Shown here piece after piece: positions 52,776 through 58,440 of a DNA stretch of 64,000 nt. The stretch spans positions 203,321 to 267,320 of the forward strand of contig CAYMIG010000001.1 of NCBI GenBank assembly GCA_964390635.1, in the 5' to 3' direction. Position numbers and translations under genes: made by a program. Numbering within the stretch: position 1 is the stretch's first letter; each line of letters begins with the position of its first letter. The notes under the pieces are model-generated. The model made no database searches. It was not told the DNA's origin and saw nothing but the letters and a program-made list of their open reading frames with translations. The DNA comes from an uncultured Vampirovibrionales bacterium (GTDB taxonomy: Bacteria; Cyanobacteriota; Vampirovibrionia; Vampirovibrionales; Vampirovibrionaceae).

Positions 52776-53720
52776 GTGACCGACGCAACCAATCAGGGGC
52801 AAATTCTGGCCGGCTTCCTGGCCCCCCACCCCCCGCACCTGGTGTATGGCGAGAACCCCCCGCAAAACAAGCCGCGCTCAAAAGGCGGCTGGGAAAACCT
52901 GCGCTGGGCTTACGAGCATTGCCGGGCCAAGATTAAAGCCCTCAAGCCCGATGTCATCATTGTGCACAGCCCCCACTGGCAAACCGTGGTGGGCCATCAC
53001 TTCCTGCGGGTGCCGCATTTGTCGGGCTTGTCGGTCGATCCCATTTTTCCCCACCTTTTTCAGTACCGCTTCGAGATGGACGTGGACGTGGAGCTGGCCG
53101 ATGCCTGCTATGAAGAGGCCCGAAAAGAGGGGCTGCTGGCCAAGAAGATGGTCAACCCCAACTTCCGGGTGGACTACGGCACCATCGTGTCGCTGCACAT
53201 GCTCAACCCGGACTGGGATATCCCGGTGCTGGGCATTTCGGCCAACAATTCGCCCTATTACTTCTCGCACGACTACGCCCAGGATCAGATGATTAAGCTG
53301 GGCGAGGCCACCCGCCGGGCCATCGAGAAAACCGGGCGCCGCGCTGTGCTGGCGGCCAGCAACACGCTGTCCCACCTGCACTTTGACCGCGAGCCGGAGA
53401 TTCCCGAGGACATGAGCCGTGAGTATGTCTACAGCTTTGAGCAGTACCAGTGGGATATGCGGGTCATCGAGCTGATGCGGCAAGGCAAAATCGATGAGCT
53501 GCAGCAGATTCTGCCGGAGTTTATGGAAAAGACCTGCGCGGAAGTGAAGGCCGGCTCCCTGGTGTGGATGCTCTCCGCCATGGGCATGCCGAAAATCCCT
53601 GCCACCATTCACGGTTACGGTACCGTCATCGGCACCGGCAACGTGGTGGCGGAGTGGGATCTGACCGCTGCCAGCCGTAAATCAGTCAATGCACAGGAGG
53701 ATGCCGCATGCCTGGTGTAA
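52776..53720 (+). CDS. amnB: LigB-family extradiol dioxygenase, catalytic beta subunit (2-aminophenol 1,6-dioxygenase AmnB-like)
   Basis: [22 protein letters not shown]...VHSPHW...RVDYGT...SNTLSH. GTG start 6 nt after AGGAGG. 314 aa, followed by a shorter LigB paralog as in amnBA. Confidence 0.65.
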
Positions 53721-54529
53721 AAACTGCCGAGAAAGCCTTTATCGTTCCGGGCCTGCCCCACCTGGCCAACCCCAACCCCGGTTGGGAAGAGCTGAAGGCG
53801 GCCCTCAAAACCGCCGGCGAGCATGCCCGCGCGGCCAGGCCCGATGTGCTGGTCATCTATTCCGCGCAGTGGATTTCGGTGCTGGGCCACTCCTTTCAGT
53901 TCGCCGTGAACCCCAAGGGCCTGCACGTGGATGAAAACTGGCACGACATGGGCGATCTCCGCTTCGACTTCAAAGTGGACCGCGAGTTGGCCCGCAAGGC
54001 CGAGGAACTGACCCGCGCCAAAGGCCTGGCCACGAAGCTGGTGGATTACGAGGGCTTCCCCATTGATACCGGCACCCTGGTGACGCTCCAGTATTTCAAC
54101 CCCGACAACGACATCCCGGTCATGATTGTCTCCTCCAACATCTACTGCGGGCAGGAGGATTCCGTGAAGCTGGGTGAGGCCGTGGGTGAAGCCATCCGGG
54201 CGCTGGGCCGCAAGGCGGTCATCGTGAACTGCTCGCTGCTGTCCCATCGTTTTCTGACCGAGGAGATCACTCCCGCCCAGGACCGCATCTGCCGTCCCGA
54301 GGATGACGAGTGGAACCGCCGCATGCTGGATTTGCTGAAATCCGGCAAAACGGGCGAGGCCATGAGGCTGGGCCCGGAATTCGCCCAAAGCGCCGGCGCG
54401 GAGATGGGCTTCAAGGGCTTCTACTGGATGATGGGCGCCTTGGGAACGCCGGAAGTCCCTGCCGAGGTGCTGGCCTACGGGCCGGTCTGGGGGGCGGGCG
54501 CCGCGGTGGTGGAATTCAGCCTGAACTGA
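53708..54529 (+). CDS. amnA: LigB-family paralog, 2-aminophenol 1,6-dioxygenase alpha subunit (AmnA)-like
   Basis: 273 aa with the same fold (FIVPGLPHL...[15 protein letters not shown]...SLLSHRF) but divergent metal-site residues. Overlaps the amnB-like 3-prime end. Confidence 0.55.
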
Positions 54530-54588
54530 TGCCATGGGGCACCGGGGCCTTCTCCCGGCGCCACTGTAAGCGAAAGGGGAACCGTGCC

Positions 54589-55020
54589 ATGCCGACCAAT
54601 GCCGATGCCGACTACAAAGTCACGCTGGATGCCACCCGCGATGAAAGCCTGCTGACGCGCCAGGGGCTGGTATCCCGCCTGGGGGAGGTGTTGCGGGATT
54701 TGCTGGATTCCGGCGACACGTTGCCCCGCACGGTGGAAGCCGAGTTGATTTTTCCCGACGACCGTTTGGCGGATGAGCTGGAGCGGAGCATTGGCCAGCT
54801 CAACAAGGTCATCCATCCTCGGGGATTTATGGACAAGATTGCCCATGCCGCCTTCCGCTCCATGAGCGGGGTTGAAGGGGATCTGAAACCCATCGTCGTG
54901 GATCGCGAACCCGGCAATCCCAACATGGTGCGGCTTAACCTCGATCTTTCCGGCATCAGCCGGGATAATGTGGCCCGCTTCTCCGAATTCCTGGCCAAGA
55001 ACGCCCACCGCCTGGCCTAG
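54589..55020 (+). CDS. hypothetical protein (143 aa)
   Basis: ATG with an AAAGGGGA SD; no recognisable motif. Confidence 0.4.
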   Translation: MPTNADADYKVTLDATRDESLLTRQGLVSRLGEVLRDLLDSGDTLPRTVEAELIFPDDRLADELERSIGQLNKVIHPRGFMDKIAHAAFRSMSGVEGDLKPIVVDREPGNPNMVRLNLDLSGISRDNVARFSEFLAKNAHRLA

Positions 55021-56401: not shown

Positions 56402-56485
56402 CCCCCGGGCGAGGGGAAAGCAATGGGATGCGGGACGTGTTCCTGCTAAAATGGCGGCATCGTTATTGATGCTGCCGGAGGGAAC

Positions 56486-56944
56486 GTGACAGGAACCGCG
56501 ACCAATTCGCCCGATCGCCAGGCGATACTCATTCGGGACAATGCCCCCATGCCGCTGGGCGCATATTCGCATGCCATGTGGGCGGGGCCGTTTCTTTACG
56601 TATGCGGGTTGGGCGCGCGCGACGGCCATACCGGCGCGGAAGTCGGGCTGGAGCTGGATGCTGCCGGCAACGTCGTTCGCTACGACATCGAGACCCAGAC
56701 CCGGCAGGTTATCCAGAACCTGGTCACCGTGCTGGAAGTGGCCGGTTGCACCTTGCGCGACGTGGTGGACGTCTCGGTCTTTCTGGCCGATATGAAAGAT
56801 TTTGCGGCCTATAACAAAATTTATGCCGAGTACTTCGACTTCCAGAATCCCCCGGCCCGTACCACGGTGCAGGCGGTGCCGCCGGGCAGGAATTTCATTG
56901 AAATCAAGGCGGTGGCCTACAAGCCTGAAAGGCTCAAACCATGA
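56486..56944 (+). CDS. RidA/YjgF/TdcF family protein, putative 2-aminomuconate deaminase (AmnD/NbaF-like)
   Basis: ...IRDNAPMPLGAYSHAMWAGPFLYVCG...TVQAVPPGRNFIEIKAVAY is the RidA fold signature. Sits between LigB dioxygenase genes and a semialdehyde dehydrogenase. Confidence 0.6.
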   Translation: MTGTATNSPDRQAILIRDNAPMPLGAYSHAMWAGPFLYVCGLGARDGHTGAEVGLELDAAGNVVRYDIETQTRQVIQNLVTVLEVAGCTLRDVVDVSVFLADMKDFAAYNKIYAEYFDFQNPPARTTVQAVPPGRNFIEIKAVAYKPERLKP

Positions 56945-58440
56945 GCACCGCCGCGCCCGAGCGTCCCGCCGGCAAAAAGGGCGGTGCCGTGAAAACCTTG
57001 CGCCACTTCATCGACGGGGAGTTTGTCTCCGCCGAATCCGGCGCGCTGTTCGATACCGTCAACCCGGCCACCGGTGCGGTTTTCAACAAGGTATCGATGG
57101 GCGGCGAAAAAGAAATCGATCGGGCGGCCCAGGCTGCCCGCAAGGCATTCGAGGAAGGCCCCTGGGCCCGTATGCCCATGGCGGAGCGCTGCAAAAAACT
57201 GCGTCAAATCGGCGAGCGGATTCTGGAAAAACTGGACGACCTGGCCATTGCCGAAACCCAGGACACGGGCAAGCCCATTACCGAAAGCCGCGAGGGCGAT
57301 ATTTTGCGCTCGGCGCAGAATTTTACCTTCTTTTCCGAATTCGCGGCGCAGCATGCCGACGAATGCTTCAACGTGTCCGCCAGCGAGCGGCATTTTTCCA
57401 GCCGGGAGCCGGTGGGCGTGGTGGGGCTCATTACCCCCTGGAACCTGCCGCTTTATCTGGCCACCTGGAAAATTGCGCCCGCCCTGGCCATGGGCAACAG
57501 CGTCATTTTAAAGCCCGCCGAATGGACGCCCACCACTGCCGGCATGCTGGCCGAAATTGTTGCGGGGCTGGATTTACCGCCTGGCGTGTTCAACGTGGTG
57601 CATGGCCATGGGGCGGGCAGCGCGGGCGAGGCCCTCACCCGGCATCCGCTGGTTAGCGCCATTTCGTTTACCGGCGAAACCACCACCGGGAAAGCCATTA
57701 TGGCGGCGGCATCCGGCAGCCTGAAAAAAGTCTCCTTTGAGTTGGGCGGCAAGGGGGCCAGCGTCATTTTCGAGGACGCCGATCTGTCCGAGGCCGTGCC
57801 AACCGCCGTGCGGGCGGCTTTCCGCAACCAGGGCCAGATCTGCCTGGCCGGATCGCGCCTCTACGTGCAGCGTTCCATCTACAACGAAGTGCTGGAGGAG
57901 GTCGTCCGCCGCGTGGAATCGATGAAGGTGGGCGATCCGCTGAAGGCCGACACCCAGATGGGGGCGGTCATCAGCGAGGAGCAGCTGAAAAAGGTACTGG
58001 CCTACATTGAGCGCGGTCGCAAGGACGGCAAATTGCTCACCGGCGGGGAACGCTTCTCTCCCGGCAAGGGTTTTGAAAAGGGATATTTCCTGAAACCAAC
58101 CGTCTTTGCCGATCTCGACAACGCCTCCCTGCTGTGCCAGGAGGAAATTTTCGGCGCGGTGCTGCCCGTGGTGCCGTTTGACACCGAGGAAGCGGTGGTG
58201 GACATGATTAACAGCACCGCCTATGGTTTATCGGCCAGCGTGTGGAGCACCGACGTGAATCGATGCCACCGCGTGTCCAGCGCCATCCGCGCCGGCATCG
58301 TGTGGGTCAACTGCTGGTTCGCCCGCGATTTGAGAACGCCGTTCGGCGGCATGAAATCCAGCGGCATCGGTCGCGAGGGCGGTCGCTACAGCCTGGAATT
58401 CTTCAGCGAAGCCAAAACCATCGCCTACCGGTACCAGTAA
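56941..58440 (+). CDS. NAD+-dependent aldehyde dehydrogenase, 2-aminomuconic/2-hydroxymuconic semialdehyde dehydrogenase (AmnC)-like
   Basis: ALDH catalytic motifs FELGGKGASVIF and QGQICLAGSRLYV (Cys nucleophile), plus the GxGxxG-like NAD site. ATGA overlap with ridA. Confidence 0.75.
   Translation: MSTAAPERPAGKKGGAVKTLRHFIDGEFVSAESGALFDTVNPATGAVFNKVSMGGEKEIDRAAQAARKAFEEGPWARMPMAERCKKLRQIGERILEKLDDLAIAETQDTGKPITESREGDILRSAQNFTFFSEFAAQHADECFNVSASERHFSSREPVGVVGLITPWNLPLYLATWKIAPALAMGNSVILKPAEWTPTTAGMLAEIVAGLDLPPGVFNVVHGHGAGSAGEALTRHPLVSAISFTGETTTGKAIMAAASGSLKKVSFELGGKGASVIFEDADLSEAVPTAVRAAFRNQGQICLAGSRLYVQRSIYNEVLEEVVRRVESMKVGDPLKADTQMGAVISEEQLKKVLAYIERGRKDGKLLTGGERFSPGKGFEKGYFLKPTVFADLDNASLLCQEEIFGAVLPVVPFDTEEAVVDMINSTAYGLSASVWSTDVNRCHRVSSAIRAGIVWVNCWFARDLRTPFGGMKSSGIGREGGRYSLEFFSEAKTIAYRYQ

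Follow-up and report, generated by a model that had tools for sequence, protein, structure and literature searches.

A seven-gene aminophenol cluster with three inserted genes

The stretch of DNA analysed here, 64,000 nucleotides (nt) from an uncultured Vampirovibrionales bacterium (contig CAYMIG010000001.1; hereafter the window, counted from its first letter), carries at 52776-58440 seven genes, all on the + strand, in which the predicted enzymes of a 2-aminophenol-type ring-cleavage route are interrupted by three further genes. The first two, amnB (52776-53720; 314 amino acids, aa) and amnA (53708-54529; 273 aa), were assigned through matches to solved structures in the PDB, and amnB also through the LigB family of Pfam, as encoding the catalytic beta subunit and the alpha subunit of 2-aminophenol 1,6-dioxygenase. 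They are followed by g3 (54589-55020), for an acidic alpha/beta protein of 143 aa with homologues P0005-P0009, g4 (55155-55712), for an acidic protein of 185 aa (isoelectric point, pI, 4.1) with calcium-loop motifs, and g5 (55781-56401), for a basic protein of 206 aa (pI 9.2) that is a paralogue of g3 and has the orthologues P0002 and P0010. The last two are ridA (56486-56944; 152 aa, Pfam PF01042), for a RidA/YjgF-family deaminase that probably acts on 2-aminomuconate, and aldh (56941-58440; 499 aa, PDB matches), for an NAD-dependent aldehyde dehydrogenase (ALDH) assigned to the AmnC type, that is, 2-aminomuconate 6-semialdehyde dehydrogenase.

The genes are co-oriented and separated by short intergenic distances, with overlaps of 13 nt between amnB and amnA and of 4 nt between ridA and aldh, and their boundaries agree with independent gene calls on two public contigs of identical sequence. 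A 338-aa open reading frame (ORF) that starts at 52704 is amnB with an upstream extension, and alignments to solved structures start at its residue 29-31. A preliminary description of this DNA had placed an amn set with three interposed ORFs at these same coordinates, which we confirm, and had named a chance juxtaposition as the way in which its interpretation might fail. The arrangement is not due to chance: the seven-gene order is repeated in the divergent contig L003, and a g3-type gene lies between amnA and ridA in nine distinct loci. What is new here is this operon architecture, with an operon-linked family of orphan genes; the four enzymes are of known types.

The predicted ring-cleavage, oxidation and deamination enzymes

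AmnB matches the LigB family of Pfam at E = 2.8e-31. Its closest solved relative is 3vsg_B, the beta subunit of 2-amino-5-chlorophenol 1,6-dioxygenase (E = 2.2e-136), followed by the beta chains 8ihg_A (6e-131) and 7txy_B (5e-119), whereas alpha chains are matched at 1e-21 to 1e-24 only. AmnA is most similar to the alpha subunit 3vsg_A (1.3e-59), then to 7txy_A (1.1e-58) and 8ihg_B (7.5e-58). As the preliminary description had proposed for this LigB pair, the two proteins group with AmnB/AmnA and CnbCb/CnbCa, and the similarity of AmnB to other extradiol enzymes is far weaker (HpaD, 8e-14; DOPA dioxygenase, 1e-5; MhpB, 5e-4). NCBIfam, which holds no AmnB-specific model, returned HpaD_Fe as the best match to AmnB, far under its cut-off. 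The AmnB residues aligned to CnbCb positions 13 (in PHPPH), 62 (in HSPHW) and 251 (in AEVK) are identical to those of 3vsg_B and are kept in all aligned melainabacterial copies; in the 3VSG/3VSH structure paper, these positions are reportedly the Fe(II) ligands His13, His62 and Glu251 of the beta subunit. Judged by these similarities, amnB and amnA are the adjacent beta and alpha genes of a 2-aminophenol 1,6-dioxygenase (AmnBA/CnbCaCb, a class III LigB-type extradiol enzyme), and from the similarity ranking the enzyme may act on 2-aminophenol rather than on catechols or other substrates. At its C-terminus (53690-53720, with equivalents in L003-L015), AmnB has a short tail with a conserved cysteine (..ACLV, ..ACPA or ..VCQK) in most melainabacterial copies.

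RidA matches Pfam PF01042 at 6.6e-28, and its best PDB match is the 2-aminomuconate deaminase 6izh (4.4e-28). A generic archaeal RidA, 2dyy, scores near-equal (6.5e-27), and the assignment as 2-aminomuconate deaminase is for this reason drawn mostly from gene context, namely the adjacency to amnBA and the ALDH gene; ridA adjoins amnBA in dozens of lineages. The score against the NCBIfam Rid model is 93, under the cut-off of 106. For the ALDH, the top PDB matches are 4u3w (1.5e-136), 7bzv (2e-132) and 4i1w (7e-132), and the top eight (E = 1e-130 to 1e-136) comprise seven sequences of 2-aminomuconate 6-semialdehyde dehydrogenase (AMSDH) together with 2d4e, a 5-carboxymethyl-2-hydroxymuconate semialdehyde dehydrogenase that matches at 1.3e-131. 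The next clade is that of the betaine-aldehyde dehydrogenases (1e-121). The best NCBIfam models, HpaE and OH_muco_semi_DH, reach 566 bits, under their equivalog cut-offs of 638 and 693. We thus classify the ALDH, by sequence, as a full-length member closest to the characterised AMSDH/HMSDH enzymes. The identities that had been suggested for the deaminase and the semialdehyde dehydrogenase agree with this, their nearest solved relatives being 2-aminomuconate deaminase and 2-aminomuconate-semialdehyde dehydrogenase.

From this close homology to characterised enzymes, AmnBA would open a 2-aminophenol-type ring to 2-aminomuconic 6-semialdehyde, the ALDH would oxidise the semialdehyde to 2-aminomuconate, and RidA would deaminate the latter to 4-oxalocrotonate and ammonia. 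The order of ring cleavage, oxidation and deamination that had been read from the cluster is correct by the PDB similarities and, for RidA, mostly by gene context, and strong homology argues for a locus whose enzymes turn a 2-aminophenol-type substrate into 4-oxalocrotonate and ammonia. Where ALDH is absent, 2-aminomuconic semialdehyde forms picolinate by spontaneous cyclisation (PMC10470539; PMC3790839).

An upper module that stands alone in many lineages

The amn and cnb operons of Pseudomonas sp. AP-3, Burkholderia xenovorans LB400 (amnRJBACDFEHG) and Comamonas CNB-1 encode the same four upper enzyme types as the window. The window locus differs from them in lacking both amnR and the amnFEHG lower pathway, in its order B-A-insert-deaminase-C with three extra genes of no assigned family inside, and in its host, which is a melainabacterium and not a pollutant-degrading proteobacterium. 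Among the annotated ORFs of the window we found no tautomerase, no FAA-hydrolase-type decarboxylase/hydratase and no acetaldehyde dehydrogenase, and a full lower pathway (4-oxalocrotonate decarboxylase, 2-oxopent-4-enoate hydratase, 4-hydroxy-2-oxovalerate aldolase and acetaldehyde dehydrogenase) occurs neither beside the cluster nor among the window's annotated ORFs. The sole HMGL-like/DmpG-like aldolase of the window (2135-3229, − strand), whose DmpG communication domain scores below threshold, lies 50 kb off and has no pathway partners. It adjoins an AMP-binding ligase (673-2181) and a Glyoxalase_4 protein (2-676), and the genes of this − strand block (2-3229) border a NeuB/PseB/PseC-type glycan biosynthesis cluster and are not a meta-cleavage lower pathway.

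The absence of the downstream genes, already noted in the preliminary description, is thus borne out for the annotated ORFs of the window. The proposal drawn from it, that of a novel truncated pathway, is not: the genes correspond to the amn(J)BACD upper module, and amnJBACD is a recognised unit that converts 2-aminophenol to 4-oxalocrotonate (PMC3790839). In our survey of 80 loci fetched with AmnB, AmnBA-type genes with nearby ridA and aldh are common in Melainabacteria, Bdellovibrionota, Oligoflexia, Binatia and marine group II archaea (L007-L086). The order amnB-amnA-ridA-aldh is contiguous in other Melainabacteria (L009-L013, L015 and L044; examples of module loci are L010 6252-13746 and L011 6804-14676), and many Bdellovibrionota, Oligoflexia and marine group II archaea have the four genes as near neighbours. 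The classical lower pathway is not recurrent around the amn modules of these 80 loci. The upper module alone is a widespread natural unit, carried by many uncultivated lineages of predators or heterotrophs, and no oddity of the present locus.

These compact modules, with the same genes, often contiguous, and no lower pathway, hold the nearest homologues of the window's enzymes; they differ from the window locus by lacking g3, g4 and g5, and many of them carry companion genes. The recurrent companions are genes for Asparaginase_II-like proteins, luciferase-like monooxygenases, cyclases of the kynurenine-formamidase family and SDR proteins, families of which none is found among the annotated ORFs of the window. 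Their recurrence suggests a natural pathway, so far undescribed, that feeds an aminophenol into ring cleavage.

Among species-representative genomes, the nearest AmnB loci belong to Vampirovibrio, Vampirovibrionales and Melainabacteria assemblies, at 83-87% identity. The order KGG stress protein-amnB-amnA is common to the window and the isolate Vampirovibrio chlorellavorus, and recurs in L004, L005, L007, L008, L014, L025 and L027. By these relationships, and by the downstream block shared with L004 (see below), the window is assigned to a member of the Vampirovibrionales. In V. chlorellavorus itself (L014 9478-12380; L027 9369-12418) this order is kept with no ridA or aldh within 10 kb, and an unrelated 167-aa ORF of no assigned function comes after amnA. 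A dioxygenase on its own in this species would yield the unstable semialdehyde and hence picolinate. In the literature on Vampirovibrio or Melainabacteria and aminophenol cleavage, we found no paper that links them. A predatory, non-photosynthetic relative of the cyanobacteria, like many uncultivated predators and marine archaea, thus carries a stand-alone upper 2-aminophenol module; its enzyme chemistry is ordinary and its host unexpected. This distribution points to a natural aminophenol-type substrate and not to the breakdown of pollutants.

Two of the inserted genes, g3 and g5, are paralogues of a rare family

None of g3, g4 and g5 gave an above-threshold match in Pfam, NCBIfam, PHROGs or PADLOC. 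Across PHROGs and PADLOC, two marginal matches of g5 to PHROGs of unknown function (E = 0.065 and 0.077) were the only ones at E ≤ 0.1 for the trio. The preliminary description had spoken of three ORFs without a recognisable family; the lack of a family match stands, and the number of families is two, since g3 aligns over its whole length with residues 58-200 of g5 (BLASTP, 9e-8). Between the window and its L003 orthologues, identity is 62% for g3 and 54% for both g4 and g5. Approximate ratios of non-synonymous to synonymous substitution rates (dN/dS), which are rough with dS near 1, are 0.31 for g3, 0.22 for g4 and 0.46 for g5, against 0.07-0.16 for the four enzymes. This pattern indicates that g3, g4 and g5 are real genes, for proteins that appear to evolve fast under purifying selection.

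When 1.84 billion representative proteins were searched exhaustively with a profile, 23 matches came back, of which two were repeat-protein artefacts, leaving about 21 family clusters. No member of the g3/g5 family matched Pfam, and the family profile found nothing significant among PDB sequences; the best result of the PDB profile search was a BAG domain at an insignificant E of 0.57. Genome contigs scanned with the g3 alignment yielded no relative, and the single match of a metagenome scan was a false positive, a dephospho-CoA kinase. In a neighbour-joining tree, the g3-type clade stands apart from the g5-type clade.

The AlphaFold2 model of g3 has a mean confidence score (pLDDT) of 84.7 and the topology beta-alpha-beta-alpha-alpha-beta-beta-alpha. 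Fold searches with this model gave no significant structural neighbour; the weak matches were to small nucleic-acid-binding alpha/beta domains (IF3-C, KH, Alba and Smr). Across 25 family members, the only conserved polar positions are N72, R90 and one Asp, and hydrophobic residues, Gly or Pro occupy the other conserved positions. As these form no catalytic constellation, the g3/g5 domain is probably non-catalytic and looks more like a domain for binding or structure than like an enzyme.

The g5 protein is built of a 54-aa N-terminal extension that starts MRIF..WR, the g3-like domain and a C-terminal LGI(T/G)G tail. Extensions of 50-68 aa occur in the g5-type members, with a MRI[FQ] start in the in-operon copies and in a pair of genes on L087, and most g5-type members have an LGIG-like tail, a motif confined to g5-type proteins. 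The tail resembles, as a loose lead only, the cargo peptides of encapsulins; no encapsulin (Linocin_M18) was matched among the Pfam-scanned ORFs of the window or in the Pfam tables of related loci. The g3/g5 family appears to be undescribed, with g3 as the founding member of an operon-linked subfamily.

g4 carries two calcium-loop motifs

The g4 protein contains 38 Asp and Glu residues. Two 12-residue loops, DENGNATLDRQE (residues 25-36, nt 55227-55262) and DYDGDHLVSTEE (residues 77-88, nt 55383-55418), fit the DxDxDG-type pattern D-x-[DN]-x-[DN]-x-x-hydrophobic-x-x-x-E, are flanked by predicted helices and lie about 40 residues apart. In the L003 orthologue, the first loop has Lys at position 3; the second loop is invariant between orthologues. 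A CxC motif (residues 144-146, nt 55584-55592) lies inside a low-complexity linker, and an amphipathic helix with a hydrophobic moment (muH) of 0.57 is predicted near the C-terminus (about residues 161-182, nt 55635-55700). Of the earlier characterisation of g4 as an acidic protein with a GCGCDS motif, the acidity and the stretch itself are present, and only CxCD is kept in the orthologue. We located g4 only in the window, L003 and L006. With its presence confined to these three contigs, it is therefore no general requirement of the dioxygenase.

The insert slot is conserved and its content varies

A g3-type gene lies between amnA and ridA in 9/9 loci with known context: the window, L003, L004, L005, L006, L007, L008, L088 and L093. 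The slot persists in loci with as little as 27-31% identity in g3 and still 83-87% in AmnB. Because its position is so strictly conserved over deep divergence, we infer that g3 is functionally tied to the operon. The inserted genes define a very rare family with no detectable relatives in sequence or fold, one branch of which is strictly tied to the operon.

What accompanies g3 differs from locus to locus. The insert consists of a g3-type gene only in L007, L008 and L093, of g3 and an ORF of 74-83 aa in L004 and L005, of g3 and g5 in L088, and of g3, g4 and g5 in the window and L003; L006 shows g3 and g4 up to the contig end. There is no insert in L009-L013, L015 and L044. In-operon g5-type genes are those of the window, L003 and L088. 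The 83-aa ORF of L004 begins with the N-terminal motif of g5 (MRIF..WR...SGDILFSG) and has at its other end an amphipathic helix similar to the C-terminus of g4, which suggests that short linear motifs may be the functional currency of the insert system.

On L087 (7000-9470), the tandem pair of g5-type genes encodes proteins of 228 and 225 aa; each contains MRIQ close to its N-terminus, and the tail at its C-terminus is basic and longer. The pair adjoins a gene for a 290-aa helical protein of no assigned function and has no amn context.

Possible roles of the inserted genes

Our preferred reading, which we hold tentatively, is that g3, g4 and g5 would have no catalytic part and would serve the Amn enzymes as accessory or scaffold proteins, that is, as adaptors. 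In this model, small fast-evolving genes would have been inserted between amnA and ridA in one Vampirovibrionales sub-lineage, g3 first, with g4 and g5 added later in the window's closest relatives. The products would bind the Amn enzymes or one another through short docking motifs, g3 serving as the core adaptor and g4 and g5 as lineage-specific add-ons, possibly calcium-responsive. The benefit would be that the dioxygenase is held near the dehydrogenase and the deaminase, so that the unstable semialdehyde is oxidised and not cyclised to picolinate. We prefer this model because the product of AmnBA cyclises without the dehydrogenase and because Actinobacteria enclose these enzymes in a microcompartment, the ARO microcompartment, for which the stated rationale is that the dioxygenase and the ALDH are held together to prevent the semialdehyde from becoming picolinate (PMC10470539). 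The ARO locus (Micromonospora rosaria, PDB 7TXY) is like the window locus in that non-enzymatic proteins are encoded with an AmnBA-type dioxygenase and an ALDH. The match of 7txy_B to the window's AmnB was given above (E = 5e-119). The likeness lies in possible function and not in membership, and no BMC-H/BMC-T (PF00936) or BMC-P (PF03319) domain was found by Pfam in g3, g4, g5 or the neighbouring orphan genes, or in the gene tables of the related loci.

A more specific version of the adaptor model strikes us as a long shot. Here the g3/g5 domain and a set of docking peptides, namely the N-terminal MRIF motif, the LGIG tail and the amphipathic C-terminal helix shared by g4 and the small ORF of L004, would form a hitherto unknown shell-free scaffold in Vampirovibrionales. 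It would bring the dioxygenase together with the dehydrogenase and the deaminase and channel the semialdehyde, possibly under Ca2+ control, as a functional analogue of the ARO microcompartment made from a wholly new protein family. Should the inserted proteins organise the pathway or make it more stable, the picolinate dead end would have a second answer, independent of that microcompartment; if they do not, they are merely lineage-specific orphan genes.

Several observations weigh against a role as adaptors. Insert content is highly variable between lineages, most amnBA-ridA-aldh modules, those of close Vampirovibrionales relatives included, lack g3, g4 and g5, and dN/dS puts the evolution of the inserts at 2-6 times the rate of the enzymes. 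Genes of the g5 type also occur elsewhere: L087 has the tandem pair, amid genes of no assigned function, and L090-92 have a lone copy in a housekeeping context. When AmnA and AmnB were aligned, those from loci with g3 had no insertion, deletion or tail peculiar to their clade at which g3 might dock. A GC-rich, weakly terminator-like hairpin follows g3 (55058-55074, + strand; L003 has a different hairpin in the same place), and an AT-rich element, TGTTTTTATTTTTATATAGAG (55112-55132, + strand), is a candidate internal promoter or regulatory site before g4. This element, of the pattern TGTTTTTAT(T/A)T(T/A)TAT..AGAG, is conserved in the window, L006 and the divergent L003, within a g3-g4 spacer that is otherwise unalignable (window 55058-55132; L003 about 2180-2290). 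From the hairpin and the element, amnB-amnA-g3 and g4-g5-ridA-aldh may be two separate transcription units. The stress-gene-rich neighbourhood of the cluster, described below, fits co-regulated, functionally separate inserts equally well.

The calcium-responsive part of the model meets further difficulties. In loop pattern and flanking helices, g4 is similar to the EF-hands of the calmodulin type and the F-hands of dockerins, and calcium binding by g4 is plausible from its motifs; EF-hand homology is without statistical support. Pfam EF-hand_7, EF-hand_6 and EF-hand_1 match g4 at 16-18 bits, under cut-offs of 25-30 (17.8 against 30 in one case), and the best PDB profile match, a dockerin, is insignificant at E = 0.078. 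An hhalign comparison with calmodulin aligned only the second loop, with calmodulin's fourth EF loop, at a probability of 1.5%, and a single-sequence AlphaFold2 model of g4 is unreliable (pLDDT 41). The label of a two-EF-hand protein that g4 had been given accordingly stands at the level of the loop motifs and not at that of the profiles.

Nearly as likely as the adaptor model, and likewise doubtful, is that the inserts are passenger or co-regulated genes, for instance with stress-protective or predation-related functions, that have no role in aminophenol cleavage and owe their place to shared regulation and vertical inheritance. The variable content of the insert, its absence from most modules, the fast evolution of its genes, the g5-type genes at other sites and the possible promoter before g4 all fit this explanation, as do the stress genes (KGG, OsmC, MsrA, SRPBCC, AKR) conserved around amn in relatives. 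So does g4 itself, which is acidic, is predicted to be poorly ordered and has a weak NCBIfam match, far under the cut-off, to XopAW, a calcium-binding secreted effector family (E = 0.0076). However, one would expect a neutral passenger to disappear or to change its place, and the g3-type slot is identical in all nine loci down to 27-31% identity. The short intergenic distances and the co-orientation of the genes also speak against passengers, and g3, g4 and g5 have, judged by eye alone from their sequences, no obvious classical N-terminal signal peptide.

That g3, and perhaps g5, is a new small enzyme replacing a missing downstream step, for example by tautomerising, isomerising or decarboxylating 4-oxalocrotonate or 2-aminomuconate, is unlikely. 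Its conserved positions, mostly hydrophobic residues, Gly and Pro, form no catalytic constellation, the protein evolves fast, and sister lineages with the same four enzymes do without g3. A tautomerase-like mechanism using Pro1, as in 4-oxalocrotonate tautomerase, was rejected for g3, since the N-terminal Pro of the window copy is not conserved.

We consider it improbable, too, that the inserts form a regulatory module in which g4 senses Ca2+ and, with g3 and g5, modulates the activity or expression of the Amn enzymes. The two DxDxDG-type loops of g4, the second of them invariant between orthologues, would suit such a sensor; the weak fold matches of g3 include nucleic-acid-binding domains and g5 is basic (pI 9.2), and the locus contains no dedicated regulator gene such as amnR.

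Metal delivery, regulation and chaperoning of the dioxygenase had been put forward in the preliminary description as possible accessory functions of the trio, and they are speculative. Oxidation readily inactivates extradiol dioxygenases, and in many meta-cleavage operons there is a ferredoxin that reactivates them. That the CxC motif and acidic residues of g4 would deliver Fe(II) to the dioxygenase or reduce it again, in the manner of XylT-type ferredoxins, is very improbable: CxCD is kept between the two full-length g4 orthologues, but g4 has only two cysteines, matches no ferredoxin or other metal-centre family and shows no ordered site in its model, and almost every amnBA operon lacks it, even among those with g3.

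Upstream signals and neighbouring genes

Upstream of the cluster, a consensus scan found a sigma-70-like promoter candidate, TTTACA-16-GATAAT, on the + strand at 52671-52698; it agrees with the consensus at 10/12 positions and is a pattern match only. An Rfam scan of 50000-59000 returned nothing but a spurious miRNA match.

Directly before amnB lies the gene for the KGG-repeat general stress protein (52388-52594, + strand; 68 aa, Pfam PF10685, 9.3e-15). Together with genes at 45156-49580, it belongs to a set of stress-type genes that also encodes an SRPBCC protein with a long acidic tail, OsmC, an aldo/keto reductase (AKR) and MsrA. OsmC, MsrA or KGG genes are found near amn in L004, L005, L007, L008 and L027 as well, which hints at an aminophenol module embedded in a stress or detoxification regulon of Vampirovibrionales. 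Between these genes are two orphans. The first (50110-50841, − strand) encodes a Gly/Ser-rich low-complexity protein of 243 aa with a (PA)n repeat at its end; the second (50930-52171, + strand; 413 aa) drew no match from Pfam, PHROGs or PADLOC, and the related loci hold no homologue of it.

On the other side, a convergent operon on the − strand (58448-63955) encodes PreA-like and PreT-like subunits of dihydropyrimidine dehydrogenase, a cytosine/purine permease and a class-III aminotransferase. It corresponds to reductive pyrimidine catabolism with uptake and is syntenic with the metagenomic contig L004. We rejected the possibility that ridA and aldh are part of this operon, since both accompany amnBA in dozens of lineages that have no preA, preT, permease or aminotransferase genes there.

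Farther upstream in the window, at about 31079-34944 (+ strand), the genes for electron transfer flavoprotein (ETF) beta, ETF alpha and ETF:quinone oxidoreductase can be recognised by eye, in a region where a naive longest-ORF call takes the antisense frame.

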